Shown here: positions 15,027 to 48,035 of the stretch, one piece after another
How the letters are laid out: each line of letters starts with the position of its first letter
Numbering within the stretch: position 1 is the first letter of the stretch
Assembly: GCF_058153355.1 (NCBI RefSeq)
Contig: NZ_CM177019.1
Direction: 5' to 3' (one strand)
DNA length: 64,000 nt
Program-made: the position numbers and the translations under genes
Notes under the pieces: generated by a model
The model's input: the letters and a program-made list of their open reading frames with translations, nothing else
Databases searched by the model: none
What the model was told of the DNA's origin: nothing

Positions 15027-15929
15027 TTATTGATAAACAAAAGTCACGCCAATAATCGATTGCACATTCCCTGCAGTCACCTGCCCTCCGGTACGTGCGT
15101 AATTTGCCGTTAATCCCAGACTTACCGCCGAAGTCCCTACTGCTCCTAACGATACCGTGTTATTCGCTGGAATAATCGTACCGTTGCGCGTTAACTGTAC
15201 GCCGACGCCCTGTGCTGGTGAAAACGACGCGGTATTGGTGAAAATCGAGTTGCCCGCATCTGCGGTTGTGCCGGAGAGGTAATACCCCAGGTTTTGGCTT
15301 TTCGCACAATAAACGGTAAGAGGAATAGGTACCGAACCGGGATAGTCCGGCAGAGTCACGGTGACATCACGAGCAGAAACATCACAGCCGCCAGTGGGCA
15401 CCACCACATCATTATTGGCGTAAATATTCCACACAAACTGGAAATCATCGCTGTTATAGTTGTTGGTCTGTCGCAAAATAAGCACGGCAATTAATGAGCC
15501 AGCTTTAATCGCCACCCCGCCCGCACTGCTCACAGGCGTCAAATAAAGCGCCACCGGCCACGGCTTATCCGTTCTCGAATTATAAACAACGCGCGGCGTT
15601 TCGCTGGTGGTAGGAAATGGATAGCTACTGCCACTATATTTTACGGTCCCGGAAAAATGAGATAACACGCCGCCATAAGCCGAACCTCGTTGCAGTGTGA
15701 CATAGTCTGTAATGGTTTCCGGGTAATCGTTATGGCAAAAGATTTGCGTCGAAAGATCTACGACCAGGTTTTGCCCCACATTCACGGCGGGCGCAAGGTT
15801 TACATAAACATTGGCGCTGCCACCGCCAATAGGGATAGCGGTGCCATTGGCGGTTTTACAGGCGAATGACCAGGCATTTACCGACCAACCCATCAACAGT
15901 ACAGCAAACAGGGTAATAACTCTTTTCAT
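15027..15929 (-). CDS. fimH: Type 1 fimbrial adhesin FimH (mannose-binding); start at MKRVITL
   Basis: 300-aa precursor; FACKTANGTAIPIGGGSANVYVNLAP lectin domain. Confidence 0.96.
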   Translation of the reverse strand: MKRVITLFAVLLMGWSVNAWSFACKTANGTAIPIGGGSANVYVNLAPAVNVGQNLVVDLSTQIFCHNDYPETITDYVTLQRGSAYGGVLSHFSGTVKYSGSSYPFPTTSETPRVVYNSRTDKPWPVALYLTPVSSAGGVAIKAGSLIAVLILRQTNNYNSDDFQFVWNIYANNDVVVPTGGCDVSARDVTVTLPDYPGSVPIPLTVYCAKSQNLGYYLSGTTADAGNSIFTNTASFSPAQGVGVQLTRNGTIIPANNTVSLGAVGTSAVSLGLTANYARTGGQVTAGNVQSIIGVTFVYQ

Positions 15930-15948
15930 TACAATCATCTCTTCGGAT

Positions 15949-16452
15949 TCAGCTGTAGGTATAGGTGATGCTAATCACTGCCTGAATGGTTCCCTGAGTG
16001 GCTCCGCCATTTACCGTCAATGCTCTGACCTGTAACGGGAAGTGCGCTGATTGTGAGGAATCATCCACCTGAACTGTTTTGGTTGCGCCAGTATTCAATG
16101 TGTTGCCACTGTCATCCTGTAGCTCTAACTGGATGTTTTGCGCGGTCCCCTGGTTTTTATAATATCCCGTACTATCGGCTGCCCCGCTGAAGCTGGCGGT
16201 GACCCTCGATGTTCCCACCGGACAATGAGTCAACTCAAGCGCAACATCATGCCAGGCCGATGCCGCACCGGCAGACACGAGACTGAAAGAATAAAGATCG
16301 CCGAGATCAACCGTGGCATTAGTGGTGGAAACCGTGCACGGTTTGGCGACGACCTTACCGTTCACGGTGATCGTGACATCGGCGGCCTGTAGCGTCGCAC
16401 TTACGAGCGTCAACATTGCCGCCAATAAACACCCACGTATGCGCCATTTCAT
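15949..16452 (-). CDS. fimG: Type 1 fimbrial minor subunit FimG
   Basis: 167 aa pilin-like, position between fimF and fimH. Confidence 0.93.
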   Translation of the reverse strand: MKWRIRGCLLAAMLTLVSATLQAADVTITVNGKVVAKPCTVSTTNATVDLGDLYSFSLVSAGAASAWHDVALELTHCPVGTSRVTASFSGAADSTGYYKNQGTAQNIQLELQDDSGNTLNTGATKTVQVDDSSQSAHFPLQVRALTVNGGATQGTIQAVISITYTYS

Positions 16453-16464
16453 GAGCATCTCCAG

Positions 16465-16995
16465 TTACTGATATTCAAGAGTGAAGGTAGCCGTGGCATT
16501 GATATGCCCCGCAGTGACAGGCACCTGTGTCGCCATTAGCCGGGCGTAAAAATTCAGCGTATTTGGTTTACCCGGCGTCAGGGTCGTCCACGAAATCGCG
16601 GAGGATGGCGCATTAAGGGGGATCTGATTTTGTTGCTCATTCAGAAGCTGTATTCCCAGCCCCGCAGCCGCTGACACCGTATTTTCAAGTGCAAGCAGGT
16701 TGGCATTGTGACTATCTGCAACGCCGGTAAACCCAACCTTTACGGCAGAAACGGCATTACCACAGGGTGACAGCAAAATACGAAATGGAACGACAGGAGT
16801 CGTCGCGCCAATGTTGTTAAATTGCTTCGCCGCGTTTTCCATCAGATCAACAGTAAAATTGGTTGATTCAGCGGCCACACTACAGCCGTTATCTCTGACA
16901 TAGCCGCGGATAGTAATCGTGCTATCCGCAGCCAAAGCGTGACTTACCGCCAGCCACAAAAAAGCGCACAGAAGATAAAAAGGTTTGCTTTTCAT
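16465..16995 (-). CDS. fimF: Type 1 fimbrial minor subunit FimF
   Basis: 176 aa pilin-like; synteny. Confidence 0.93.
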
Positions 16996-17004
16996 CACGC
17001 CCCC

Positions 17005-19641
17005 TTAACGACATTCAGCTGATAGCTGGGTTAATAACTGCTGCTGACTCTCTGGTGGCAGTTGATAATTGGCGACACAGTGAGCATTTTCCTCTTCTCC
17101 CCATTTCACCTGAACTTTTCCCGCTAAAGGCATCCCGCTGAGATAAACCTGACCATTATCCGCAACAATGCCGCTACTCTGGCTACTCTCTGATGTGACC
17201 ATCGCCCCAAACGGCAGCGGCTTATTATTGTGGGTTAGCGTCATGAGCAGTTTTATCCCAACACGCGCTTTAAACTCTGCTCGCACAATTGCCCCACGGG
17301 TGGGAACAACGTTAGCGACCGCGTTATCTAAATCGACGTTATCAGCCAGGGTATTGGTATCCAGCGCCACTCTATTTTCCCGATATTCTGTGGCATAAGG
17401 CAGCACGGCATAGCCGCGCCAGTCGGTACGCACCCCCGTCTGGTTTTCAACTTTTGCATCTTTTGCGCCGGGCGTTTTAACAAGCACCACCGTATCGTTT
17501 AACGGCTGCCCCAGCGTTACGCCATTGGCATGAGCCAATACCCCACCGCTGATTCCGTAATAGAGCTGCTTAATATCATCGCTATGGCTGTAACCAATGT
17601 TGGCATTGCCGTAGCCACCGCGATAATTCAGCGCGGCGTAGCCTGTACTTCCGCTATTACCATCGCCTCCCCCGGCATAGCCGGTTTGCACGCTATAGCT
17701 GAGGTTATTGTCTTCCAGCAACGTACCGTATACGCCCGCAAGGTTGGTCATCCGACCGTTGAGATCGTGTGACATGCTGTAGCTGGCACTGGCATGTCGC
17801 CACTGAGATTTACTGTCAGAACGCAGCCAGTGGCTGAAAGGAATATTGATGTTAAGAGCCAACATCTGATCCCGTCCTTTTTGCCACGCGTTTTTCGTCA
17901 GGCTATAGCTGAGCGTCCAGTTGATATCTTCGAAAGCAGTATTTAATCCAGCCTGGAATTGCTCATCGACATTACTCGTTCCCCAATAAGTTTGATGGCT
18001 ACCACTCAAATACAGTGTTGATGTGCGTCCGAGTTGCTGAGTAACAGTGAGCTGTAATTTCCCGCGTTTGTTATAAGCGAGATTGTAATAGTCGGTAAAT
18101 TTCGGCTTAACCTGAATAACACCATCCTGTGTTTCGATGTTGTAGCCACTCATTCGGCTGTATGTTGTATCAGCGAAATTAAAATACCCGCTGGTCGAGT
18201 AACGGTAACCCACTAACTGAAAATTCGTACCTGACTCATTGAGCGATTTGTTATAGAGAAAACGCACCGATTGCCCGTCATGCTGACTGTCATCAGGAAG
18301 TGTGGAATTAGCCTGCGTCATATCCACGGACAGAGCGCCCAGTGCCCCCATGTTTTTCCCGATACCGAAATTAAAAGCGCGATAACGATCCGCCAGTTGC
18401 GTTCCACCATATATTGTCCAGCCAGCCGGAAGGCCGTGGAGTAATGTACTCTGGAAAAAACGGGGTTTATCCTGTTGCGCATTTCCACTACGGTATTCTC
18501 CTGCCGTAATGGAATAACGAGTATGCCCTTCACGTTGCAAAAGCGGGACTGACGAATAGGGTACGGTAAAGATCTGCGTGCTACCGTCAGCCTCTTTAAT
18601 CGTTACCTGCAAGTCACCACTATTACCTGCGGCATAGATATCGTTGATGGTAAAAGGCCCCGGTGGCACCGTACTATTATAAATGTCATACCCATTTTGT
18701 TTAATAGTGACCTGTGCAGTACCACGAGCAATACCGTGGATCACCGGGGCAAATCCTCTTTGGCTATCGGGTAACATATTGTCATCTGAGGCCAATTGTG
18801 CGCCGCGGAAGTTAATACCATCAAAAATATCGCCCTGAGTATAACCATCACCCAGCGTCAGCCGGGAACGCAACGGTATTATGTCTCGCTCAAGCCAGGT
18901 ATTGATATGCTGCCATTTATTTTTGCTACCTGATGAACTGTCGCTACTGTTATAACTCCAGGTGGTATTGTCGCGTAAACGCCATGCACCAATATTTAAC
19001 CCACTCTGTAGGTTTAAATATGCATAATGGCTGTTACCACCAATCCGATTCTGTACACTATTTCCGCTGAAATTATAATTGAGCAATCCGGCATTAATAC
19101 CGGGATCCCATAACTCAGGAGGAATATAACCACGCGCGCGATTACTCATAAATGCCTGAGGGATCGTCAGGTTGAGTCGCTGCTGACCAACATCCAGATG
19201 CGCAGTAGCGTCATGGATCATTGAGGTTAATGGCACGCAGGCATCATCCGCCAGCAGATTCATACCGGAGACAGAAGCCGTATTCAGCCCCATACTGGCA
19301 AGTTGCGCGCGTGTCAGGCAGGGAACAATCCCTTGTTCACTGTCGCCCGTATTAAATGTGACATCACGCGTTGCCATATAACCATTATTCAAATAGATAT
19401 CGACGCGATACGTCCCTGGCGGTAATTCTTGACCATTCTCGAAACGCGATAAATCGGCCACAGCCTGGGGATCATCCGCTAAAAAGCGCGGATTAAAATA
19501 GAGTTCGGCAGATGACAAATGTGCCTGTGCGGCAAAAGCACAGGCGACAAAGAGCCGAACAAAAAAACCAGCCAGACGAGGCTTACGAATATGCAAGCAT
19601 TGTGTGTTTCGCTGGTAAAGTCTTAAATTCAGATATGACAT
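17005..19641 (-). CDS. fimD: Outer membrane usher FimD
   Basis: 878 aa usher-family protein. Confidence 0.96.
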   Translation of the reverse strand: MSYLNLRLYQRNTQCLHIRKPRLAGFFVRLFVACAFAAQAHLSSAELYFNPRFLADDPQAVADLSRFENGQELPPGTYRVDIYLNNGYMATRDVTFNTGDSEQGIVPCLTRAQLASMGLNTASVSGMNLLADDACVPLTSMIHDATAHLDVGQQRLNLTIPQAFMSNRARGYIPPELWDPGINAGLLNYNFSGNSVQNRIGGNSHYAYLNLQSGLNIGAWRLRDNTTWSYNSSDSSSGSKNKWQHINTWLERDIIPLRSRLTLGDGYTQGDIFDGINFRGAQLASDDNMLPDSQRGFAPVIHGIARGTAQVTIKQNGYDIYNSTVPPGPFTINDIYAAGNSGDLQVTIKEADGSTQIFTVPYSSVPLLQREGHTRYSITAGEYRSGNAQQDKPRFFQSTLLHGLPAGWTIYGGTQLADRYRAFNFGIGKNMGALGALSVDMTQANSTLPDDSQHDGQSVRFLYNKSLNESGTNFQLVGYRYSTSGYFNFADTTYSRMSGYNIETQDGVIQVKPKFTDYYNLAYNKRGKLQLTVTQQLGRTSTLYLSGSHQTYWGTSNVDEQFQAGLNTAFEDINWTLSYSLTKNAWQKGRDQMLALNINIPFSHWLRSDSKSQWRHASASYSMSHDLNGRMTNLAGVYGTLLEDNNLSYSVQTGYAGGGDGNSGSTGYAALNYRGGYGNANIGYSHSDDIKQLYYGISGGVLAHANGVTLGQPLNDTVVLVKTPGAKDAKVENQTGVRTDWRGYAVLPYATEYRENRVALDTNTLADNVDLDNAVANVVPTRGAIVRAEFKARVGIKLLMTLTHNNKPLPFGAMVTSESSQSSGIVADNGQVYLSGMPLAGKVQVKWGEEENAHCVANYQLPPESQQQLLTQLSAECR

Positions 19642-19707
19642 TATTCCTCCGGTTTAAAATTACCCGGCAGTCAATTCTTTTTATTCAGGCGAAAAATTCC
19701 CCCTGCG

Positions 19708-20433
19708 TTATTCCATTACGCCCGTCATTTTTGGGGTAAGTGCGCCATAATCATTTATTGTTCGGTAAGTAATGTTGCTTCCTGCATCAGAAGGTAATTT
19801 AACTGTGCTTTCGCCCATTGGAGGCACCAATGCATTTTCAAGAACCCGAGTTCCGGCATTCAACTCTGTTACCGTCAGGTAATAGGGTGTCGGGTTAATC
19901 AGCGTCAGAGAATTCGCGCTACGACGAAATCTTAATTTTTCTGCGGCCTGATCGGGTGGCAACGCTAATTTAGCCGGGCGATAGTACAATTTAATGCGGC
20001 TGATAATTGCGAGCTGTAGCGTATTCTCAATCAATTTTGATTTATCCATTGACGGAATCGCTTTAACGTTCATCCAGAATAAACTTTCCCGATCCTGTGG
20101 CAATTGGTTATTTGTGGCATCAAGAATACGTAAGGTATTCTCTTTTTTTCCCTTCATCGCAAACAGAGGTGGCGTCACGATAAAACGACCATCCTTTACA
20201 CCATCGGCATTTTCCACCCATGATTGAATTAAATAGGTGCTATTTTCATCATTATTTGTCACGGCAAGTTGCACTTGTTTTTGCCCTGCCGGATAAATTA
20301 CGCGAGTCGCACCTAAGGCCACTCCTGCTTCCGCGCGTCCGGCAGCCATCATTGCCATGATCATCAGGATACCTGCCAGCAAGCAGAATGTTATTTCCTG
20401 CAATTTCCTTACATTGACGTTTTTATTACTCAC
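19708..20433 (-). CDS. fimC: Periplasmic chaperone FimC
   Basis: 241 aa PapD-like chaperone. Confidence 0.96.
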   Translation of the reverse strand: MSNKNVNVRKLQEITFCLLAGILMIMAMMAAGRAEAGVALGATRVIYPAGQKQVQLAVTNNDENSTYLIQSWVENADGVKDGRFIVTPPLFAMKGKKENTLRILDATNNQLPQDRESLFWMNVKAIPSMDKSKLIENTLQLAIISRIKLYYRPAKLALPPDQAAEKLRFRRSANSLTLINPTPYYLTVTELNAGTRVLENALVPPMGESTVKLPSDAGSNITYRTINDYGALTPKMTGVME

Positions 20434-20469
20434 TGTCCTGTTCCTGTTATCACATTATCTGCTGAACAA

Positions 20470-21009
20470 TTACTGATAGGTTAAAGAGAACCAGGCCTGA
20501 GCATTGGCGATGCCGCCAGTAACCCGACGCCCGGTAGCACGATATTTGGCGATGAAATGTAACGACGTAGAGCCTGAGTAAAGTCGTTTCCAGTTTGCTG
20601 GAGGACGATTAATCGGTACAAGGTTTCCTTCATCATCAAACAACGCTACGCCAATATTGGTGGCAATCCCTGGCCCCTCTCCCACGGAAAGCACATCCGG
20701 ATTTTTACCATCCGCGACACCGTGAAACGCCACACCCACACGTTCACTCACCACCGTGCTACATTCCCGTAAATGAATAACAAAAGGCACCGGTGCGCTA
20801 TCTTCCCCAACCGCATGAAACCGGTTACTGCTGATTTGCCTCATATTGACCGTCATTTGTTTATCACCAGCTTCAATCCGGCAAGCTTCTGCAATAATGA
20901 CGCCCTGAAATTGCATATTTCCGCCGGGCAACGTGGTGTTCCATTTATTTCCGGCCAGAGCAAACATTGGCAGCAACGACGCTAATAGAAATAATCTCTT
21001 CCTTTTCAT
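20470..21009 (-). CDS. fimI: Fimbrial protein FimI (start at [12 protein letters not shown] track extends to 21141)
   Basis: 179 aa pilin-like; between fimA and fimC. Confidence 0.9.
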
Positions 21010-21073: not shown

Positions 21074-21622
21074 TTATTGATACTGAACCTTGAAAGTCGC
21101 ATCCGCATTAGCAGCACCTGGGGTTGCGGCACCGGTTGCAAAGTAACGCGCCTGGAACGGAATGGTGTTAGTACCGTTATTCAGGGTTGTTTCTGCACTA
21201 AATGTCGCACCGTCCAGCGCCAGTGCAGCACCCGTTCTGTCCAGGATCTGCACACCAACGTTTGTTGCACTACCTGCAGCAGAACTCTGCAGAGCCAGAA
21301 CGTTGGTATGAGTCGCATCAATCGCCGTACCTAAAAAGGCAACAGCGGCTTTTGATGCAACATTGGTATCGCAATCATTCAGCTGAATGTTAAAACCGAC
21401 AGCAGAACTGGTTGCTCCGTCCTGTGCCAGCGATGCGGCACGAACCTGTCCTAACTGAACGGTTTGATCAACAGAGCCTGCATCAACTGCGCAAGCGGCG
21501 TTAACAACTTCCCCTTTAAAGTGAACGGTCCCACCATTAACCGTCGTGGCAGCGGCCAGAGCCGCTGTAGAACTGAGGGACAGAGCCGACAGAACAACGA
21601 TTGCCAGAGTTTTAATTTTCAT
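21074..21622 (-). CDS. fimA: Type 1 fimbrial major subunit FimA (start at [12 protein letters not shown] track extends to 21778)
   Basis: 182 aa; signal peptide [24 protein letters not shown]-terminal ...FKVQYQ. Confidence 0.96.
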
Positions 21623-21739
21623 GCTGCTTTCCTTTAAAAAACTATTTCTAAATCGACATGGGCAGTCGTTCTGTACACTTTGTTTTGAAACGAATTGGAC
21701 TGCCAACACTGCACAGTTCTTCCCCAAAAGATGAAACAT

Positions 21740-22053
21740 TTGGGGCCATTTTGACTCATAGAGGAAAGCATTACGCACGAACTTTCTTAGTTTATTATTT
21801 GGATTTATATTCTATTAATACATTATTTTATAGATTTTTATATTGAACGCGGTGGTTTTTGGAGAGATGAATGAGGAAGTTGCTTCGAGACACAGAAACG
21901 TTAGCTTTACCTATAGCGGAGGTGATGTGAAATTAATTTATAAGAGAAACAATTTACATATCAAACAGTTAGTTGCTTTATGTCGTTTTTTTATATTTTT
22001 ATGCTTGAGAACAAATACAAAACTTTTTTATGATATGGACAGTTTGGCCCCAA
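21740..22053. promoter_or_regulatory. fimS: fimS invertible phase-variation switch (314 bp) bounded by 9-bp inverted repeats TTGGGGCCA (21740-21748) and TGGCCCCAA (22045-22053)
   Basis: Exact 9-bp inverted repeats spaced to give a 314-bp element between fimE and fimA, the published size of the fim switch. Confidence 0.9.
22005..22034 (+). promoter_or_regulatory. Sigma70-like promoter inside fimS (TTGAGA, 17-18 bp spacer, TATGAT) reading toward fimE, away from fimA
   Basis: Hexamers seen on the + strand next to the fimE-proximal inverted repeat; fimA is on the - strand at lower coordinates. Confidence 0.55.
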
Positions 22054-22100
22054 TTGTCTTATATTTCCTTATCTTTTCATATTATTATCAATAAGTTACA

Positions 22101-22697
22101 TCAGGCATCTTCTCTTTTTAATTTTTCGTTTATGAGATTATTTCTTTCCCATAATCCGGCAAAACGTGCAGCATTACTGGCGGTATAACGCACAGTATGG
22201 CGAATATTTCGATGCCCGAGATAATCCTGAATTAAACGGGTATCTGCACCACGCTCCGCCAGTTCATAACCGCAAGCATGCCTTAACATATGAGGATGAG
22301 TCTGCGTCACGGTTCCAGCTTCAATACCGGCATCGCGAATAATGCGATAGGCCTGCTGGCGAGAAAGTCGACTCCCGCGGCGAGAAATAAATATGGCGTC
22401 GGTCTGGTCAGCGCCTTTCCAGTTAATACGTTCCTGGGTCCAGCGCTCCACAGCTTCACGCTCATCAAAACGTAACGGGTGAACGGTAGAAAATCCGTTC
22501 TTCAGTCGGCGAATATTTATTCGACCTTCGTTAAGGTCAAGATCCTGATAATGCAGATCAAGCAGTTCACTAATACGCATCCCATGCCGATATGCCAACA
22601 AAATTAGGCAATAATCTCTGGCTCCCGTTGCCCCGTAACAAACCGCCTGCATCATGTCCTGAACTTCTTTACCGGTAAGATAACGACGTTTACTCAC
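22101..22697 (-). CDS. fimE: Tyrosine recombinase FimE (ON-to-OFF switching)
   Basis: 198 aa phage-integrase-family recombinase (catalytic motifs HxxRH ... Y); position adjacent to fimS. Confidence 0.93.
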   Translation of the reverse strand: MSKRRYLTGKEVQDMMQAVCYGATGARDYCLILLAYRHGMRISELLDLHYQDLDLNEGRINIRRLKNGFSTVHPLRFDEREAVERWTQERINWKGADQTDAIFISRRGSRLSRQQAYRIIRDAGIEAGTVTQTHPHMLRHACGYELAERGADTRLIQDYLGHRNIRHTVRYTASNAARFAGLWERNNLINEKLKREDA

Positions 22698-23174: not shown

Positions 23175-23777
23175 CTATAAAACAGCGTGATGCTGTCGTC
23201 CTCTGGCTCTATCCCAGATGCCGTAAAAACGCCCTGCATTGCTGGCGGTATACCAGACAGTATGACGAATATTGCGATGCCCAAGATAATCCTGGATAAG
23301 TCGTGTATCTATTCCCATATTCGCCAAAGCAAAACCACACGAATGGCGTAACATATGCGGATGAATCTCCAGTGATAACCCAGCATTACCACCAGAAGTC
23401 GAGATAATATGGTAAAACTGTTGCCGAGAAAGCGGGTTCCCCTTACGTGATAAAAATACCCACTCGCTCTCAGCATGCGGATAAGAAGTACGTATACTCA
23501 ACCAGTTTTTTAAAGCCTGAACTTCTTTGTTCAATAGCGGGTGCGTTGTTGAAAAGCCTTTTTTTAATCGATGGATATAGATACACTTTGCCTTAAGATC
23601 AATATCCGAAATCCTCAATCGACAAATTTCACTCGCCCGGAAACCATGAATAAAACAAAGCAAAGTCAGACAATAATTACGTGCTGCATGAGGCCCGGTA
23701 TTTGCTGCTTTAAGGAGTGACTCGATTTCACTATGGGTCAGGAAGTTCCTTTTTTTGTTATCAGCCTTATTCTTCAT
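23175..23777 (-). CDS. fimB: Tyrosine recombinase FimB
   Basis: 200 aa, paralogous to FimE; upstream of fimE. Confidence 0.93.
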   Translation of the reverse strand: MKNKADNKKRNFLTHSEIESLLKAANTGPHAARNYCLTLLCFIHGFRASEICRLRISDIDLKAKCIYIHRLKKGFSTTHPLLNKEVQALKNWLSIRTSYPHAESEWVFLSRKGNPLSRQQFYHIISTSGGNAGLSLEIHPHMLRHSCGFALANMGIDTRLIQDYLGHRNIRHTVWYTASNAGRFYGIWDRARGRQHHAVL

Positions 23778-25205
23778 CGTTTTCCCTTATAATTACAGAC
23801 GCGCACTAGCTGTGCTGGGTTAGCAATAATCCAACATTTTAATCCTGGTTATGTTTATAAAAGCGAACGTTTGCTTAATAACTAACGTAAGTGGACCAGT
23901 TCTTCTGAGTGAACTAAAATGGAGTAGCGATAGTTACTTATAATAACTTTGCCATACAAACGCCATGCTCTTGCATGCTATGTACCCTTATATATTTATC
24001 AATCTGATACGAATCTAATAATAACCCTCATCATTAATGCAACTAATCTTATCTATATATCATGTGATATGTTCTGTAACAAGTAAAATCAACATAAAAA
24101 ATTCAGCAAAATTTAATATTCGTTCAACTAGCCGTCTCACATATGACATTATTAGTCAACTGCATTTGCCACAAAATGGCTATTTCATGGAACGCAGTAA
24201 TTTCTTAGCGTCTATTATCATGCTAATTCTTAGGTCCCTAGCGATTATTCCTGCCTGGTTCGTCAGCTTACGCCATGAGATTGCTACATTCCTTTTTATC
24301 CTGGAGATATGGGGGAACGCAGGCGACGCTTTTTCATCTACATTCGTTGGTAAATATGGCTTTGGTCACTACGACTTAAACCTTCCTCAATCACAGCTAT
24401 TCGCCGGGCGATACGGCAAACAAACTAAGTGAAACATCATCCTGAAAACACCAATGCGTACTGAACATCAACAAGCCTCTCCTGATCGACTTCAGAAGTG
24501 ACCAGTTACAAGCCACAAACCTGGAAACATATTTCATGATGAGAATTATGCTCAGCCTGATGGCGGGTAAACACTTATTTTCACCACGCTCACTGAGTTA
24601 GCCAGCAAAGCTCCCCTTGTTTAGAGTGCAAATAAATAACATATAAAACAAATAGTTAATAAAATATCTTTGATTTGTGAAGGCCATCGTAAGTGTTCGT
24701 CTGACTTCACATGGCATCTTCTTCATAGAAAAATATAGACATATTTTGTGACACGAATTGCAAATCTGGTTTTGTTATATGGCTTGTGTGATTTTTGATA
24801 TGGTATAACAGGTATAAAGGTGTACCGAAGTAGTCAATGAGACTGAGCATCTCGCAATCTATGACAAACATCACTTCAGTCTGAAAGGAGTATGAAAATG
24901 AGATCAACAAACTTTCTATTTTATGACTCTGGGTAAAATGGATTGAGTAAGTGATATCGCTTACGAATATTCAAATCAATTAAACATCAGAAGAGATTTT
25001 ATACTCAGGTATTTAATCTGGCCCTCTGTTTATTTAAATAATGTGGAAGAGAATTTTCACAGGAGACCTTATACAAAAAATATAAAATACAGCTACCCGT
25101 TACCAAAGACACTATAAGCCTGGCAAAAAATATTACACAACATAAATGCTAATTGTTTATGCGGGCTTTGTATTGCTTTCTGTATCCTACAAATGAGTGA
25201 AATTT
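23778..25205. promoter_or_regulatory. Long (~1.4 kb) AT-rich nanC-fimB intergenic regulatory region
   Basis: No convincing ORF; in E. coli this interval carries the divergent nanC and fimB promoters and distal NanR/NagC/IHF sites (established knowledge, individual sites not mapped here). Confidence 0.6.
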
Positions 25206-28100: not shown

Positions 28101-28751
28101 TTAATTTGATTTATTCGCATCCATCAACGCTTTTAACTGCTCCGGCGAAAACGGTGGTTTGCGTCGGTGCAACATCGCATGGCAATTAGGGCACACAGGA
28201 AGCAAATCATTAACTGGATCCAGCTGGTAATCCTCTTTAATGGCTGAAAGCGGCACCAGGTGATGCACATGGATAAAGCCTTCAGCGATATCACCATAGA
28301 TCTTCACCAGATCAACGCCGCATACTTTGCACTGGCATCCATGATGTTCGACCGCTTTATCTCGGGCCTTTTTATCGCGTTCATAGCGGTTTACTGTCAC
28401 CTTTATCGCCGCACCTTCAAGGTATGTCTCCTGCGACGGCAACTCATCCGGGAACAGAACGTCGGCTATGGGAGCCGCAGCGGCTTTATCCTGATGAATA
28501 TGAAATCCCTGCTCTATGAGTAGTTTGACGCATTTAGATTTTATTCCGCCGGTGAAATCCGCAGGGGTAAATTGCGTCCCCGTCATCAATGTCGCTGCGA
28601 TGCCAGCAATCGCCTTCGAGGGGTAACGTCGGCCATGATATTCAATCTCATACAACCGCGCAGGCTGGAACTGATGAGTTTCTCCCGCATCCCATAAATG
28701 GATAGCTTCGATGATATACCGCCGCGGAAGATGATCAGGGAGTTTATTCAT
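28101..28751 (-). CDS. HNH-family endonuclease (216 aa) with an uncharacterised N-terminal domain
   Basis: C-terminal CxxC...HVHHLVPLS...N...CPNCH zinc-finger/HNH motif; N-terminal ~130 aa not recognised; convergent with nanS (7-bp gap). Confidence 0.7.
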   Translation of the reverse strand: MNKLPDHLPRRYIIEAIHLWDAGETHQFQPARLYEIEYHGRRYPSKAIAGIAATLMTGTQFTPADFTGGIKSKCVKLLIEQGFHIHQDKAAAAPIADVLFPDELPSQETYLEGAAIKVTVNRYERDKKARDKAVEHHGCQCKVCGVDLVKIYGDIAEGFIHVHHLVPLSAIKEDYQLDPVNDLLPVCPNCHAMLHRRKPPFSPEQLKALMDANKSN

Positions 28752-28887
28752 GGAGAATGTCCTTATACGTTCTCAGAACAGGCAGCAAAAAAACAAATGA
28801 GATCAAGGTAATATATCTTCACTTGCAGGCTTGAACAGCAGAAAATTTGCGAGCATGATCGCAATTATTTCACTGCCAGGGATATCA

Positions 28888-29760
28888 ATGGCTTCCAGTA
28901 AATCGCTACAGCAGGCAATTGCCAACATAAAAATCTGGCACAAGGGTGAACAGCGCGCGCCGCATAAGCCATTGTTACTGCTATACGTATTAGCGGGATA
29001 CCTGAATGGACATCCGCGCCTTTTCGATTATGGCTCGGAAATCTACGAACCTCTGCACAGTTTACTGGAACGTTTTGGGCCACAGCGTTCACAGTACCGA
29101 CCTGATATGTCGTTCTGGCGATTACAAGGCGACGGATTCTGGCAATTACACAATGCCGAACTTTGCTCAACAGCAGGGAGTAGCCGACAACCGCCAGTGA
29201 AGGAACTGACCGAACACCGCGTTGCAGGCGGTTTCGATGAACAGCACTATGCCCTGGTAATCGGCAATAAAAAACTCATCAATACCCTAGCGCAACAGAT
29301 ACTCGAAGCGCACTTCACCGAGAGCATTCAGGAAGAAATTGCTGACGAGCTGGGTTTTGATCTCCAGCAAATCCGTAAACAGCGCGACCCGTTATTTCGC
29401 AAAAATGTATTACGCGCTTATAAATACCAGTGCGCGATATGTGGCTTTAATATGCGCCACGACGACACCACCGTCGCGTTGGAAGCGGCGCATATAAAAT
29501 GGAAACAGCACGGCGGTCCTTGTGAAATTCCTAATGGCCTGGCGCTTTGTGCAATACACCATAAAGCCTTTGATAAAGGATCGATTGGCCTGGATGAAAA
29601 TATGCGGGTACTGGTCTCGGATGCGGTAAACGGCGGAGGGATCGTTGAGAAACTATTCTGGGATTTTGACGGGAAAACTATTGCGTTACCACAGGTGCGT
29701 AAAAATTACCCTTTTGAGGGGTTTGTGGAGTGGCATCGAAAAGAGGTTTTTAGGGGGTGA
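28888..29760 (+). CDS. HNH nuclease-domain protein (~290 aa from ATG at 28888; ORF track begins at a TTG at 28831), candidate modification-dependent restriction endonuclease
   Basis: C-terminal CAICGF...EAAHIKW...NGLALCAIHHKAFD motif resembling the HNH_2-type nuclease fold; AGGGA Shine-Dalgarno before 28888; N-terminal domain unassigned. Confidence 0.65.
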   Translation: MASSKSLQQAIANIKIWHKGEQRAPHKPLLLLYVLAGYLNGHPRLFDYGSEIYEPLHSLLERFGPQRSQYRPDMSFWRLQGDGFWQLHNAELCSTAGSSRQPPVKELTEHRVAGGFDEQHYALVIGNKKLINTLAQQILEAHFTESIQEEIADELGFDLQQIRKQRDPLFRKNVLRAYKYQCAICGFNMRHDDTTVALEAAHIKWKQHGGPCEIPNGLALCAIHHKAFDKGSIGLDENMRVLVSDAVNGGGIVEKLFWDFDGKTIALPQVRKNYPFEGFVEWHRKEVFRG

Positions 29761-29761
29761 G

Positions 29762-29817
29762 GTAGGCTATCTTGTGCATACAAATAGACAAATAAATTGT
29801 ATAAAGAGATAGCCTAC
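29762..29817. terminator. Inverted repeat (GTAGGCTATCT ... AGATAGCCTAC) between convergent genes; possible bidirectional terminator
   Basis: 11-bp perfect inverted repeat with ~34-nt AT-rich loop seen in sequence. Confidence 0.3.
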
Positions 29818-29822
29818 AAATA

Positions 29823-31133
29823 CTAAATAAATTCAGCCCCACTAGGAAAACGCAACTCTGATGTCTGTAAACTCTCGCCAATAAAGAAAGGTACAACCCA
29901 TAAACGTAACCTATTTTCCTTCTGATGGCTAAATTCATAAGGATGAGGAGATGGCTGATTAAATCCGTTATGATAGGGGTATATCAAAATCATATCACCT
30001 TCCCCCTCCTGGTAATTCAATCCATAGGCAAGCATTTGGTAGAGATCGGCTTGAGATTGCTCAAGACTGTCCTTTCTGCCATTAACTATCTTCCATTTAA
30101 CATCACAGGTAATAACTGAACCAGTAGTACTTTTACGAGGCCGTAAACAAATATCAGGCCGCAGCTTAAATAAAGCTTTACCGTTATAACTAATCAGATT
30201 TTTTGAACTTACCTGTGCGTCCACTCGCCATTTATCATAATAACGATAACGCATCCATGTCGTCACAAAAGATTCAAAAACAGCCTCCATCGGGAAAAGC
30301 AGTGAAAAAGCATTAACATCCCCATACATACAGTGTGGAGAATCGCCCAATAAAATCATCTTCGCCCACGCTAATGCTTGCTCATAGTGATGCATTTGTC
30401 TATCAAAGTGTAACTGCTCGAAAGCTATATAAGCATCATGAACTGACGTGATATTTTCAAAGTGAAACTGCAGCTGTGTTATCTGCTGTAATAATTGTGG
30501 ATTACTGGTCTGGCGACTAATCTTATTGATTGCAGTTTTGAGTATCCGGTTTTCCAGACGATTGACGCTGTACTCGTCATACTCTACCTGAAAACGATCC
30601 CGCCTAATACAGTTTTTGCTTAATTGTGCAGAGATCCGTAATCTTCCTTTCATCCATGGAAGATTATCTTCCTGACGTAAATAGTCACGTTTTAACCCTC
30701 TCTGCACAATCTTACGCACGCTCTCTATAAATTGTTGAATAAAGATATCCATCAGAGGCATTTTAGATATTTTGACGCCAGATTCAGAGGAGGCAATATG
30801 ACGAAATGATTTTAACGTACGTAACATCATCAGTAATTGTTGACGAACAGTATCCTCATTATCCTGACCTGTTTTAGGCAGGATTTCGAGAAATCGCCCC
30901 CCTGGCAGTGAGATTACTCCTGCATAGTTTTTTACCTGCAGCGTTTTTACTCCATTCCGGCTGCTAAGGGTGAGCAAACGATGAGTATTATCAGCATCGT
31001 CTTTCAGACAGCGCAGCTCAAGCCATTTAAATAGGTCTGCAGGTAGCACTACCGCATTATTTATACGGGCATCACCTTCCTCACTCACTAAATGCCCGTA
31101 TTCGAACACAGTGAAATGACTGGAAGATTTCAT
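29823..31133 (-). CDS. McrC-like nuclease subunit of a McrBC-type modification-dependent restriction system (start at MKSSSHF; ORF track TTG start at 31199)
   Basis: ATG overlaps the stop of the upstream McrB-like gene (ATGA overlap); size and position typical of McrC; sequence is not the K-12 McrC. Confidence 0.7.
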   Translation of the reverse strand: MKSSSHFTVFEYGHLVSEEGDARINNAVVLPADLFKWLELRCLKDDADNTHRLLTLSSRNGVKTLQVKNYAGVISLPGGRFLEILPKTGQDNEDTVRQQLLMMLRTLKSFRHIASSESGVKISKMPLMDIFIQQFIESVRKIVQRGLKRDYLRQEDNLPWMKGRLRISAQLSKNCIRRDRFQVEYDEYSVNRLENRILKTAINKISRQTSNPQLLQQITQLQFHFENITSVHDAYIAFEQLHFDRQMHHYEQALAWAKMILLGDSPHCMYGDVNAFSLLFPMEAVFESFVTTWMRYRYYDKWRVDAQVSSKNLISYNGKALFKLRPDICLRPRKSTTGSVITCDVKWKIVNGRKDSLEQSQADLYQMLAYGLNYQEGEGDMILIYPYHNGFNQPSPHPYEFSHQKENRLRLWVVPFFIGESLQTSELRFPSGAEFI

Positions 31134-33184
31134 TCCGCACTCCTGCGTTTTTCTTTTTGAGGTGCATAAATTTGCTGCCAGGCGATTGGATTGTCCCAAA
31201 CGTTGTCATCCTCTGCTGCCAGGTGAAAACTGGTTCCCAAGTCATCTGTTCCGTTATCACCAAAGAGATCGGCATACTTTTTCTGGTATTTCACCTCACG
31301 TACAAATTGAAGATCTGGTGCTTCCTCTTTTTGGTTATCAGCCAGTACCATGCGAATTTTTTGCCAGTCATTGTAAAAATATTCTTCCAGCAATGGTAGT
31401 ATCTTATTTCGCATAATCCGTTTGAATCTTTCAAATGCCAGAGCTTCGTCTTCTTTTGCCTGCACAACAGGGATAAAAAAAGCATGCCCCAGCATATGTT
31501 CTCTATCGTATAAAACCTGGATGCGATCGTTAAGCGTCTGCAATAGACGAGGCAGATCAATACCTTTAATGACAGTATCTTTCAGAACAGTAATATCTGG
31601 CAGCATCGCTTCAAAATCAAATCTGCGACGTAGTGCAGTATCAAGTGCAGTAAGCGAATGATCAGCAGTGTTCATGGTACCAATTAAATAAAGGTTATTC
31701 GGTACACTAAATGGAGTGGAAGAGTATGGCAGCAATACGCTAAGCGATTCTGGCTCACCAGCCCGTTTAGATGGCTCAATAAGGGTAATTAGTTCACCAA
31801 AAATTTTTGAAATATTACCCCGATTTATTTCATCAATAATGAGAACATAGTTTTCCTTTTTTTCTGAAGCTACGCTCTGAGTATTCAGAGGCAGATAACG
31901 TTGATTAATTAAATAGTTAAGGATACTGCGTACATAAGATGGATTATGTACTTTTGCTCGTGGATCCTGATAAACTTGCCGAATATCCTTCAAATAGGCA
32001 TTGTAACCCTGTCCTAAATCCTCTTTTTTCGATTGTGACGGAAAAATTCCAAAGTTGGTTTGACTTTTATACGTCAGCTGGAAGGCCTTACCCTGTTGTG
32101 TTTCCAGCGTGATATTTTCACCTTCAGATAAACGTTCTTGTAGGCGAGTAAGTGCGCTATCCAACATTTCCTGCGCACCAGCATGACCAAAGGCGGCATC
32201 CTCGCATATCTGTTTAAAAATACCTGCCTTTATTTCGTATTTTACATTACCGTCATCAGTAGTCTCAGCTCTTAAACCTTCAATAAACTCTTCATAACCA
32301 AAGCTCTGATGAAAGGTGATAAAACGCACTCGATTATCTTTGATAAGCTGATCATAAATCTTTTTCAACTCGCGACGTTTTTCACTCTCATCCTTACCCT
32401 CCTGCAGGGAGTAAGCGATCGGATCACAAATTTGTACAGCAAGCTCAATAGTACGATATGTTTTACCTGTACCTGGCGGGCCATAGAGAATTGTGTTTTT
32501 AGGCAATGGCGAACTTATAACATCATCTTCTTGCTCATTTTCTTGTAAAGCACTTTCGCTTCCAACTAAACCGATAGCATTTTTATCCTGAATTTCATAC
32601 GCATAGAGATGCCAAAGTGACATATTCAGCTCAATAGGGTCGATATCATCACCCAGCGCACGATTTAGCGTTTCTTTAAGATCAACATTGCGAGCCAGCC
32701 ACTCCCGTTCTCCGGAAAGACCTAGCTGGAAATGGTTGTTGCAATAATTGTAGCAACTAAAAAAATTATTAACATTCACGACACTGCTAATTTTTGATGG
32801 GTATATTGCTGCAAAAGCACGATTACAAAGAGCCCTATATACCTTATTTAATACTCCGTCCGCTTTAAGTTTGATAAGACGTTCAATGACCCGATTATAA
32901 TTTTCTTGTGTACACTCTTCTGCTATCTGACGGGTGAGCGTTAGAAGGTCTTTTTGTGCATTTTCAAATTCAACCAATGACATCCCACCTTGCATCAGGC
33001 TGGAGACACCATTGTCACGTTCATACCATACCTGCCGAATCGTGGCTTCAGAAAAGTTTGGTTTTTCGGCCTGAATCTGTTCTACAAGCTCGCGGTAGTG
33101 TTTGCCCCAAACTGAATTGTATTGATTATTTTTTTCAATTTGAGCACGAAAGAAGGGGGCTAATGCTGATGAATCCTGAACCAT
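31130..33184 (-). CDS. McrB-like AAA+ GTPase subunit (684 aa) with a divergent ~230-aa N-terminal domain
   Basis: Walker A LYGPPGTGKTY and McrB-signature MNTADHS...RRRF motifs; N-terminal region has no resemblance to the K-12 McrB DNA-binding domain. Confidence 0.78.
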   Translation of the reverse strand: MVQDSSALAPFFRAQIEKNNQYNSVWGKHYRELVEQIQAEKPNFSEATIRQVWYERDNGVSSLMQGGMSLVEFENAQKDLLTLTRQIAEECTQENYNRVIERLIKLKADGVLNKVYRALCNRAFAAIYPSKISSVVNVNNFFSCYNYCNNHFQLGLSGEREWLARNVDLKETLNRALGDDIDPIELNMSLWHLYAYEIQDKNAIGLVGSESALQENEQEDDVISSPLPKNTILYGPPGTGKTYRTIELAVQICDPIAYSLQEGKDESEKRRELKKIYDQLIKDNRVRFITFHQSFGYEEFIEGLRAETTDDGNVKYEIKAGIFKQICEDAAFGHAGAQEMLDSALTRLQERLSEGENITLETQQGKAFQLTYKSQTNFGIFPSQSKKEDLGQGYNAYLKDIRQVYQDPRAKVHNPSYVRSILNYLINQRYLPLNTQSVASEKKENYVLIIDEINRGNISKIFGELITLIEPSKRAGEPESLSVLLPYSSTPFSVPNNLYLIGTMNTADHSLTALDTALRRRFDFEAMLPDITVLKDTVIKGIDLPRLLQTLNDRIQVLYDREHMLGHAFFIPVVQAKEDEALAFERFKRIMRNKILPLLEEYFYNDWQKIRMVLADNQKEEAPDLQFVREVKYQKKYADLFGDNGTDDLGTSFHLAAEDDNVWDNPIAWQQIYAPQKEKRRSAE

Positions 33185-33542
33185 CTCTTAATCCAATATG
33201 TAGGGGGGAGGGAAATTGGGATAGCCTTATCTTATCGGATTAATCTCAAAAATGTTAAATTTTATGATAAAAAAAAACTTTCATCCTGAAATTACCTTCT
33301 GCCCTGGAGCCGCCACATTTATCTGATGACTTTGAACTGCAAAACGCATGGTGTTGGTGGTTCTCAGAGAAGGCCATAGCATTCTTTCAGACGTAAAATC
33401 GCTACTCGTTTTTCAACCTGTGTGCATTTTCTAGTTGCATAGGGAATCAACTGTTTTTCAGGTAGGTATTGTTTACAGTAAATGGATATGCCGAAATTCA
33501 GAGGGTTCCAGTAACGACATTTTGACAGCAAACATACGACAT

Positions 33543-34376
33543 TCATTTTGCTGATAACGCTGACGGATAGTGCTTCGCCACAATGTCATTCATCTTATCC
33601 ACCAGATCCAGTCGCTTGAATGTGATGTGTCCACTGCCTTTCTGGTAATAGCGGATGACAAATAAATCGTCATTAAATACCTGCTCATGCGGGTGAGCAC
33701 TAACGAAGTCCATAAACCGAATCGCAACATCATGCCGGTTATCGGGAATGGCCTTCCCATCCAGCAGATAGAACATCCGTTCCAGATCGGCAAGCTGATC
33801 TCGCCGCCAGCCCCAGTGCAGGCTGTAACCCCATCGGTCATGCTTCACCAGATTGTTAACGATAATCTTCTTACCGAAATAACAGGGATTATTGGTTTTG
33901 TAATCCCAGCTCAATCCCTTAAATACATTGATAATCCCACGTTCGAAAACGTCATGCTTATTGTGGTGGAGTTGTTCAAAGGTACTCAGGATGTTGGCTT
34001 CGCTAATCGCCGGGAGATCGCCCTCCTCCAGGTTCTTTGCCCACTGACTGCGGGCTTCGGCATCCATCAGAGTCAACATCCCGGACTTCAGCATGAGATC
34101 GCGCCAGATGCTGCGATCGATATTGCGGGTGATCGCCGACATCGCTTTGTCGGTTGGTTGCATCAGCCAGCAGTCAAAGGCATATCCATTACGCATTCCC
34201 CAGGTTCCAGCCACATCACCGCCAATACTGGATGTCAGACTGGAGATATCATCCAGTTTTTGGATTAGCGTCGCTATCAGCTTCAGTGCGCTATCACGTC
34301 CTGTGACGATACGCTCAATATTGGTCGAGCGAATTATCTCGTTGTGATCGGTTAAGACTTCAGCTTCTGTTTGCAT
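33543..34376 (-). CDS. Hypothetical protein (277 aa), same strand and upstream of the McrBC-like pair; possibly a DUF4942-type protein (low confidence)
   Basis: Uninterrupted ORF, no recognised catalytic motif; located inside the defence island. Confidence 0.5.
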   Translation of the reverse strand: MQTEAEVLTDHNEIIRSTNIERIVTGRDSALKLIATLIQKLDDISSLTSSIGGDVAGTWGMRNGYAFDCWLMQPTDKAMSAITRNIDRSIWRDLMLKSGMLTLMDAEARSQWAKNLEEGDLPAISEANILSTFEQLHHNKHDVFERGIINVFKGLSWDYKTNNPCYFGKKIIVNNLVKHDRWGYSLHWGWRRDQLADLERMFYLLDGKAIPDNRHDVAIRFMDFVSAHPHEQVFNDDLFVIRYYQKGSGHITFKRLDLVDKMNDIVAKHYPSALSAK

Positions 34377-34682
34377 AATCTTTCATCCGTAAAAAAATAC
34401 ACTCGCCGTTAGTAGCAGACGGATTATCCTCTGGTGAAAGATTGGGTAAATAATGAGATTGAAAATCGGGAAGGTGACTCGCAATAAATTATCTGATCAC
34501 CTACGGATGGACGATGGGCATATAAAATAGCCTCCTGACTCAAACGGTGAATGCTGAATAAGATGCACTAACAATCTGGTACTGAATCCCCTCCTCACCG
34601 TCATACAAATCTGAAAAACCAAAAAACTTCCGGTAAAATCCCGGCAAAAGCCGACGTTAAAAACACATTCAAAGGATAAAAA

Positions 34683-36239
34683 ATGACCAGTCTTCAGCAG
34701 CGCGCGGAGCTTCATCGCCAAATCTGGCAAATTGCTAACGATGTCAGAGGTTCGGTCGATGGATGGGATTTTAAGCAATACGTTCTGGGCGCGCTTTTCT
34801 ACCGTTTTATCAGCGAAAATTTTTCCAGCTATATTGAAGCCGGTGATGACAGCATCTGTTATGCGAAACTGGATGACAGCGTAATTACTGATGACATTAA
34901 AGACGATGCCATCAAAACCAAAGGCTACTTCATCTACCCAAGTCAGCTTTTCTGCAACGTAGCTGCGAAAGCAAATACCAATGACAGACTGAACGCAGAT
35001 TTAAACAGCATCTTCGTTGCTATCGAAAGTTCTGCTTACGGTTACCCTTCAGAAGCTGACATCAAAGGTTTGTTTGCTGATTTCGATACCACCAGTAACC
35101 GCCTGGGTAATACCGTTAAGGATAAAAATGCCCGCCTGGCCGCGGTTCTGAAAGGGGTTGAAGGGTTAAAGCTTGGCGACTTTAACGAACATCAGATTGA
35201 CCTGTTCGGCGATGCCTATGAGTTCCTGATTTCTAACTATGCGGCGAATGCCGGTAAGTCAGGCGGCGAGTTCTTTACACCGCAGCACGTCTCTAAGCTG
35301 ATTGCACAACTGGCTATGCACGGGCAGACCCACGTTAACAAAATCTACGACCCGGCAGCGGGTTCCGGTTCGCTGTTGTTGCAGGCTAAAAAGCAGTTTG
35401 ATGACCACATCATCGAAGAAGGTTTTTTTGGTCAGGAAATCAACCATACGACCTATAACCTGGCGCGTATGAACATGTTTTTGCACAACATCAACTACGA
35501 CAAGTTTGATATCAAGTTGGGCAATACGCTGACTGAGCCGCACTTCAGAGATGAAAAACCGTTTGACGCCATCGTATCTAACCCACCGTATTCGGTGAAA
35601 TGGATAGGCAGCGATGACCCGACGCTGATTAACGATGAACGTTTTGCCCCGGCTGGCGTCCTGGCCCCCAAATCAAAAGCTGACTTCGCCTTTGTACTAC
35701 ATGCGCTGAACTATCTTTCTGCCAAAGGTCGTGCTGCGATTGTCTGCTTCCCGGGTATTTTTTACCGTGGCGGCGCAGAGCAGAAAATCCGTCAGTATCT
35801 GGTTGATAATAACTATGTCGAAACCGTGATTTCACTGGCTCCGAACCTGTTCTTTGGCACCACCATTGCCGTCAATATTCTGGTGTTGTCTAAACATAAA
35901 ACCGATACCAAAGTTCAGTTTATTGACGCCAGCGAACTATTCAAAAAAGAGACTAACAACAACATTCTGACCGATGCCCATATCGAACAGATTATGCAGG
36001 TATTTGCCAGCAAGGAAGATGTTGCTCATCTGGCGAAATCTGTCGCGTTTGAGACCGTTGTCGCTAATGACTATAACCTGTCGGTAAGCAGCTATGTGGA
36101 AGCGAAAGATAACCGCGAAATTATCGATATCAGTGAGCTGAATGCTGAGCTGAAAACCACGGTCAGCAAAATCGACCAGTTGCGTAAAGATATTGATGCG
36201 ATTGTGGCTGAAATTGAAGGCTGCGAGGTGCAGAAATGA
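34683..36239 (+). CDS. hsdM: Type I restriction-modification system methyltransferase subunit HsdM (type IC, EcoR124-like)
   Basis: 518 aa; N6-adenine MTase motifs ([10 protein letters not shown] motif I; IVSNPPYS motif IV); closely resembles recalled EcoR124I HsdM. Confidence 0.93.
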
Positions 36240-37390
36240 ACGAGTTGAGTTATCTGGAAAAATTACTGGATGGGGTTGAGGTTGAGTGGTTGCCATTGGC
36301 TAAAGTTTGTCGTTTAATAAACGGGAGAGCATATAAGCAAGAAGAACTGCTTTCCAAAGGCAAATATCCAGTATTAAGAGTCGGTAATTTTTTTACTAAC
36401 CAAAATTGGTATTACTCAGATTTAGAATTAGATCAAGACAAGTATTGTGATAACGGTGACCTTTTATATGCTTGGTCCGCATCATTTGGTCCAAGAATTT
36501 GGCATGGGGGTAAATCTATTTACCATTATCACATATGGAAAGTGGTTCCAGATTCGAATCTTATTTGTAAACAGTTTCTATATTACTTGTTACAATGGGA
36601 TACTAAAGCACTTAAAGATGCACATAGCACTGGTTCTACTATGATGCACATCAGCAAAACTACAATTGAAAAAAGGTTAGTCCCCATCCCCTGCCCGGAT
36701 AATCCGGAAAAATCCCTTGCCATCCAGTCTGAAATCGTTCGGATTCTGGATAAATTTACTGCACTTACCGCTGAGCTTACCGCTGAGCTTAATATGCGAA
36801 AAAAACAGTACAACTACTATCTCGACCAGTTACTGAATCTTGAGGGTAGGGAAAATACTCGAGAAATGAGGATAGGTGATATTTATGATTTTCAGTATGG
36901 AACAGGCAATACAATTCCTAAATCTGGAGGGCAATATCCTGTTTATGGTAGCAACGGGATTGTAGGCTCCCATGACAAATATAACAGCGAAGACTCACCT
37001 GTTATTGGCCATATAGGTGCTTACGCAGGAATCGTTAACTGGGGCCAGGGTAAGCATTTTGTTACATACAACGGAGTTATTTGTAGGCACAAATCGAAGG
37101 AAGTTCTTCAAAAATACGCCTACTATTTATTACTTTTACAAGATTTCGGTTCAAAATCTAATAGTGCATCACAGCCTTTTGTTTCATATAACATATTAAA
37201 TGCTCCTATTGTTTTGGTTCCCCCTTTACAAGAGCAAGCTCGTATCGTCGCAATACTCGATAAATTCGACACCCTGACCAACTCCATCACCGAAGGTCTT
37301 CCGCGTGAAATCGAGTTGCGCCAGAAACAATACGAGTACTATCGTGATTTACTGTTCAGTTTCCCAAAACCTGAAACTCTCAGTAATTAA
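36236..37390 (+). CDS. hsdS: Type I R-M specificity subunit HsdS (type IC) with two target-recognition domains
   Basis: 384 aa; conserved central ([35 protein letters not shown]) and C-terminal ([33 protein letters not shown]) type IC regions flanking variable TRDs; 4-bp overlap with hsdM. Confidence 0.9.
36764..36787 (+). repeat. Two tandem copies of a 12-bp unit (CTTACCGCTGAG) encoding TAEL-TAEL in the HsdS central conserved region
   Basis: Perfect 12-bp tandem duplication seen in sequence; in type IC systems the copy number of this repeat sets the spacer length of the recognition site. Confidence 0.85.
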
Positions 37391-37511
37391 TTGACCATTA
37401 TTACAGACCGGACCATCTTAATATCCGGTCAGTATATAGACTATTTTTTACACGCCGGAAGTCACCATTAACCCCCTTCCGGCCCTTGCCAGACGGCACA
37501 AAGGATGCGCT

Positions 37512-40500: not shown

Positions 40501-40628
40501 CAGAATTAAACGAGACGTTACCAAAACTTAGTCCGTTAAACCCGCAATATAAAACGAAAAAACAGACGGTTTTCCAGAAGATCGTCGCGTTTATTGAGAA
40601 GTTTAAAGGTGTAGGCGGGCAGATATAA
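37512..40628 (+). CDS. hsdR: Type I restriction enzyme R subunit HsdR (type IC, EcoR124-like), 1038 aa
   Basis: SF2 helicase motifs ([24 protein letters not shown]) and N-terminal nuclease region; near-identical over long stretches to recalled EcoR124I HsdR. Confidence 0.93.
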
Positions 40629-40852: not shown

Positions 40853-40937
40853 TGGTGCCGAAGGCCGGACTCGAACCGGCACGTATTTCTACGGTTGATT
40901 TTGAATCAACTGCGTCTACCGATTTCGCCACTTCGGC
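40853..40937 (-). tRNA. leuX: tRNA-Leu (anticodon CAA), leuX
   Basis: 85-nt sequence on the minus strand matches recalled leuX (GCCGAAGTGGCGAAATCGGTAGACGCAGTTGATTCAAAATCAACCGTAGAAATACGTGCCGGTTCGAGTCCGGCCTTCGGCACCA); its 3' end faces the island. Confidence 0.95.
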
Positions 40938-46127: not shown

Positions 46128-46390
46128 TTTAAATACGCCCGTAAAAACTCGTCTTTTGCAGGATTTTAGCTTGTTTCATGGCTTAAACGTCATTTATTCT
46201 CTTGAGTCGTCGAAATCGTCGCTAAGATAATTATACTCAACGGATTCACCTCTCAGATTTTGTTCTGACGTGCCAATGCCGTAATAACGTTAAGATTAAC
46301 ACGAAGTCATCGCAACAGCGGACATGAGTTACGAAAGCTTGCAATTCTATCTGTAGCCACCGCCGTTGTCTTTAAGATTCAGGAGCGTAG

Positions 46391-47905
<1,515 letters not shown>

Positions 47906-47924
47906 TTGCATCAGGCTGTGTTGT

Positions 47925-48035
<111 letters not shown>

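Follow-up and report, generated by a model that had tools for sequence, protein, structure and literature searches.

A diverged fimS allele, very probably the canonical Escherichia type 1 fimbrial phase switch, sequenced in the OFF orientation

The fim switch has been textbook phase variation since 1985, and fimS of E. coli K-12 is the closest described counterpart of the element analysed here, which lies in a 64,000-nucleotide stretch of contig NZ_CM177019.1 (assembly GCF_058153355.1; hereafter the window). The two loci share the position between fimE and fimA, the length of 314 bp, the 9-bp repeats, the promoter hexamers with their 18-nt spacing and the orientation, as well as genes for the recombinases FimB and FimE (97–99% protein identity), whereas the window element differs by 35 substitutions, among them changes that remove a SnaBI site and move a BstUI site. 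By analogy, the same logic, in which a recombinase flips a promoter flanked by inverted repeats, would also describe Klebsiella fimS/FimK, Proteus mrp/MrpI and the Bacteroides invertons, although these switches use other repeats and recombinases and the window locus is orthologous to fimS of E. coli itself. The switch of E. coli O157:H7 is held OFF by the loss of 16 bp from fimS; this and other locked-OFF fim switches (Shigella, EPEC E2348/69) have an OFF assembly in common with the window, but the window carries neither a fimS deletion nor a disruption of fimB or fimE.

The original prediction had described a 314-bp element with perfect 9-bp inverted repeats, and both the coordinates and the repeats were found as described: TTGGGGCCA occupies 21740-21748 and its reverse complement TGGCCCCAA occupies 22045-22053, bounding a 314-bp element (21740..22053; G+C 30%) that is listed on the minus strand, the coding strand of the fim genes. 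The fimA-proximal repeat (IRR, 21740..21748) and the fimE-proximal repeat (IRL, 22045..22053, which reads TTGGGGCCA on the minus strand) are both identical to those of K-12, and imperfect complementarity reaches outward from them in 22-nt arms that are 82% complementary (21727-21748 and 22045-22066). When the window was shuffled 100 times, 5 of the shuffled sequences also contained two or more matches of the 9-bp repeat pair, so the pair alone is not significant. Because the repeats and the promoter motifs are weak taken alone, the identification of fimS comes from its position between fimE and fimA and from gap-free homology to K-12 fimS, not from motif statistics. Rfam and tRNA scans gave no match within the element. 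On the strength of the gap-free alignment to MG1655 fimS and an OFF pattern in the HinfI assay reproduced in silico, we conclude with high confidence that 21740-22053 represents canonical fimS, the phase switch that controls the type 1 fimbrial operon in Escherichia, sequenced OFF; none of the observations speaks against this reading.

Open reading frames, protein identities and the annotation of E. coli strain MB52 place fimS in the gap between fimE and fimA: the two recombinase genes, fimB and fimE, lie upstream of it and fimAICDFGH lies downstream. The fimE gene (22101..22697, minus strand) encodes an intact tyrosine recombinase of 198 aa (ON to OFF) with 97% identity to K-12 FimE over its full length, and fimB (23175..23777, minus strand) an intact tyrosine recombinase of 200 aa (both directions) with 99% full-length identity to K-12 FimB; in the identical segment of MB52 the first is annotated FimE, and fimB is likewise annotated there. 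The major fimbrial subunit gene fimA (21074..21622, minus strand; 182 aa, 97% identity to K-12 FimA, full length) has its ATG 117 bp beyond IRR. The rest of the switch-controlled operon, fimI, fimC, fimD, fimF, fimG and fimH (15027..21009, minus strand), was read across from the MB52 annotation, on the basis that fimA, fimC, fimD, fimE and fimB start and end there as the window ORFs do and that the region is 97–100% identical in 500-bp bins. Around the fim genes, divergence from MB52 is greatest in the long fimB-nanC intergenic regulatory region (24001-25000), at about 91% identity as against 98–100% in the adjacent fim genes.

Alignment of the window element with MG1655 fimS (both 314 bp) showed 35 substitutions and no indels, an identity of 88.9%. 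No difference from K-12 occurs in the first 27 and last 32 positions, which comprise the repeats and the adjoining sequence, whereas positions 201-300 from IRL contain 20 of the 35 substitutions; the promoter-distal half of fimS is where published diagrams locate the Lrp and Fis sites (bioRxiv 10.1101/2022.09.20.508701). The SnaBI site is gone from the window element (TACGTA has become TTTGTA), leaving the 601-bp amplicon uncut in silico, and the K-12 BstUI site is lost, with a new one 110 bp from the fimA-proximal end. Because these sites are lost or moved, two of the three standard phase assays (SnaBI and BstUI) would misbehave on the window strain: the HinfI assay alone behaves as published on this element, and BstUI sizes would differ from those of K-12.

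The promoter scan found its best match lying wholly within fimS at 22005..22034 on the plus strand (TTGAGA as -35, an 18-nt spacer and TATGAT as -10; 10/12), 11-40 bases inside the fimE-proximal repeat and facing fimE, which is where and how the original prediction had placed a promoter. Both hexamers are kept in MG1655 and in strain E69. The match is the homologue of what we take to be the mapped fimA promoter (Olsen and Klemm 1994), an assignment made on general background, hexamer conservation and phase-assay geometry; a full-text literature search for the hexamers gave no relevant match confirming the mapped promoter. The element is thus predicted to carry a sigma-70 fimA promoter near one end, and inversion would place it at 21788..21759 on the minus strand, reading into fimA (mirrored coordinates). 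The further claim that this is the only good promoter in the element held in part: it is the best internal match, but two 9/12 matches also lie inside fimS, one of them on the minus (fimA) strand at 21964-21935, and another 10/12 match straddles the repeat. Promoter-like matches in the fimS region numbered 4, against 1.9 ± 1.4 in shuffles, and so are not enriched. The straddling match (TGGACA-18-TATATT, 22036-22065, plus strand, across the fimE-proximal repeat) is present in the OFF orientation only, and transcription from it would enter fimE at the 3' end, in antisense; its second hexamer is TGTATT in K-12, and it is probably a chance match in AT-rich DNA.

The orientation was read along three independent lines, namely the direction of the promoter, the HinfI phase assay, and the SnaBI phase assay applied to the colinear MG1655 element. 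By definition the switch is OFF when P_fimA is directed away from fimA (bioRxiv 10.1101/2022.09.20.508701), as the promoter at 22005..22034 is. The published bands of the HinfI assay are 489 bp for ON and 359 bp for OFF (PMC4349694; pairs 489+70 and 359+200), and with the published primers the sequenced window gave, in silico, 358+199 bp, which changed to 482+75 bp once the element was inverted; of these primers, Phase_L differs from the window at 4 positions and Phase_R at 1. The published pairs of the SnaBI assay are 403+198 for ON and 440+161 for OFF (PMC4374849), and in-silico SnaBI digestion of the MG1655 reference gave 162+442 bp for the sequenced orientation and 406+198 bp for the inverted one; because the former fragments match the published OFF pair, this reference (NC_000913.3) is OFF. 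A literature search for an explicit statement that the MG1655 reference has fimS OFF found none among its hits, and its state is therefore established by in-silico restriction. The window aligns with MG1655 fimS colinearly, in the same orientation and with no gaps inside the element. A figure legend from the Dorman laboratory places the BstUI site between LRP-2 and IRR in the K-12 OFF drawing, in agreement with the OFF call; the BstUI fragments from the same laboratory (539+187 OFF, 433+293 ON) fit either primer arrangement arithmetically and lend support only through the legend's placing of the site by IRR.

Strain E69 (CP089930) served as a positive control in the opposite state: its promoter abuts IRR and faces fimA (ON), and its element agrees with the window fimS at 280/315 positions after inversion as against 161/335 without it. 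Alignment to known fimS sequences, proposed as a check on the original prediction, thus pairs the window with the OFF reference and the E69 ON element with the inverted window, and together with the OFF result of the HinfI assay in silico it bears out the orientation that had been called. A mislabelled ON orientation, with the true fimA promoter at the other end of the element, could appeal to the two 9/12 matches elsewhere in fimS, one of them on the fimA strand, but such matches are no more than shuffled sequence yields, the published restriction assays reproduced in silico give OFF, and the K-12 BstUI geometry agrees with OFF. Its probability is negligible, and the reading is already refuted, barring mislabelling in the published assays themselves. 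As separate observations, the E69 element (from the GTDB species-representative collection; ON, at 510-830 of locus L005) is 315 bp long, which exceeds the K-12 and window elements by one base.

Given the OFF orientation, the locus would be expected to work as follows. FimB and FimE would recombine the 9-bp inverted repeats and so flip the 314-bp segment carrying the fimA promoter; from established knowledge of the system, they would bind half-sites flanking and overlapping IRL and IRR, with strand exchange inside the repeats, and IHF, Lrp and Fis would act as cofactors that shape the synapse. With the promoter facing fimE, fimAICDFGH would lack a promoter and the cells would be non-fimbriate, while the fimE mRNA, as is established for OFF-oriented fimS (summarised in bioRxiv 10.1101/2022.09.20.508701), would meet a Rho-dependent terminator, which would lower FimE in OFF cells. 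After inversion, the fimA transcript would have a leader of about 130 nt ahead of the ATG, on the assumption that it starts a few bases beyond the -10 hexamer.

How common this orientation is was assessed by searching 5,426 complete RefSeq E. coli genomes with a 711-nt query across both fimS junctions, and with an ON query consisting of the same 711 nt with the internal 296 bp reverse-complemented, colinear matches being counted in each case. The window orientation was found in 4,457 of the genomes searched and the inverted one in 246, so that roughly 94% were OFF and 5% ON among the 4,721 genomes with a fimS locus. E. coli assemblies are thus OFF by default. FimE activity dominates and wild-type cells are mostly non-piliated (PMC9096935), and we ascribe the OFF majority among assemblies to this predominance; OFF is likewise to be expected as the consensus of a broth culture, since FimE drives ON to OFF efficiently. 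Both orientations are seen across E. coli assemblies and among K-12 derivatives, with ON also in E69. The ON set includes some assemblies of K-12 MG1655 and DH1, whereas the NC_000913.3 reference is OFF, which shows that the orientation found in an assembly depends on the culture that was sequenced, not on genotype. It is reasonable to suppose that the sequenced template came mostly from non-fimbriate cells, or that the assembler took the majority isoform.

A junction-pattern scan of genome contigs returned only two records, an E. coli-like MAG contig (OFF) and E69 (ON), which are too few for a cross-species census of ON and OFF. The former is a 3.3-kb contig (CAUHML010000277.1, locus L004, 2900-3317) that carries a K-12-like fimE 3' end with fimS OFF under the name 'uncultured Bacteroides sp.', and is almost certainly a mis-binned Escherichia contig.

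An OFF assembly could also arise if the switch were permanently OFF in this lineage, the orientation then being a fixed genotype and not a sampled phase. There is precedent in the 129 of 129 Shigella genomes found OFF in one study (PMC4374849), where the switch is locked by nonsense mutations in fimB (PMC4374849), and in EPEC E2348/69, whose intact-looking locus is held OFF by regulation through Fis (PMC9096935). In the case at hand, 35 of 314 positions have diverged, mostly in the cofactor-binding half, and the close relatives among the 13 matches listed, down to 97.8% identity, all have the window orientation; against this, 13 OFF relatives are expected from a background that is 94% OFF (0.94^13 is about 0.45). 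The structure of the locus also speaks against a fixed state: the element is exactly 314 bp, with perfect repeats and adjacent sequence identical to K-12, and neither recombinase is truncated, FimB being 99% and FimE 97% identical to its K-12 counterpart. A 16-bp deletion of the O157:H7 type, looked for in the K-12 alignment of the window fimS, is absent, as is any indel. Locking through a fimS deletion or broken recombinases was ruled out by the 314-bp length without indels and by a FimB of 200 aa and a FimE of 198 aa; the switch may, by analogy with EPEC E2348/69, be held OFF by regulation. A permanently OFF lineage is overall very improbable. Because both recombinases are full length, the repeats perfect, the adjoining sequence unchanged and the element without indels, the switch is most likely functional, and the OFF assembly very probably shows the majority phase of a working fimS rather than a lock.

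The divergence of the allele from K-12 appears to belong to the lineage. Identity of at least 95% to the 711-nt query was reached by only 29 of about 4,700 genomes, with MB52 (from a poultry cloacal sample, Cuba) identical to it. For the lptG-pepA housekeeping stretch (44000-48000) the best identity among complete RefSeq E. coli genomes was 98.8%, with most E. coli at 95–99%, and the genomes that match fimS best are also the best for this stretch; the fimS divergence is for that reason a property of the lineage and not of fimS in particular. Along its whole length, the window has no close match among complete RefSeq E. coli genomes. Identity to MB52 itself is mosaic, at 100% over fimE-fimS-fimA, about 95% over ahr-yjgR and 70% in 8501-9000 (a DUF2686-family gene). 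Together these patterns suggest that the window comes from a rare, deep-branching Escherichia lineage with recombination.

Beyond the fim genes, a restriction and defence island (28101-40628) lies between the nan genes and the tRNA-Leu(CAA) gene leuX (40853-40937, minus strand). Its first ORF (28101-28751) is collinear with an HNH endonuclease gene of MB52 and has no NCBIfam match of its own; it is followed by a restriction endonuclease of the type binding phosphorothioated DNA (28831-29760), two ORFs distantly resembling McrC/McrB and scoring below the NCBIfam cut-offs (29823-33184), a 277-aa ORF with no assignment (33543-34376) and a type I restriction-modification system (34683-40628) made up of hsdM, an ORF in the hsdS position without a family match, and hsdR. 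No integrase-sized ORF was found beside the leuX tRNA gene in the window; at the leuX site MB52 has a P4-like satellite with a nuclease/helicase pair. Further along, Rfam model RF02850 (Ysr276) matches over its full length, with 181.9 bits, in the lptF-pepA intergenic region at 46952-47146 on the minus strand; the match overlaps the place where the MB52 annotation has the small ORF ytgA.

For the biology of the switch, fimS in the OFF state is already known and is its commonest state, and there is nothing novel in finding it here; the rare, diverged allele is the only mildly unusual point. The element stands without RefSeq annotation, and annotators should label both it and its orientation. 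Given the substitutions in the Lrp/Fis half, switching rates in the window lineage could differ from those of K-12. We consider it rather unlikely that, compared with K-12, the divergence shifts the ON/OFF bias or the way switching responds to leucine, supercoiling or Fis; if it did, the lineage would keep to OFF, or to ON, more firmly than E. coli usually does.
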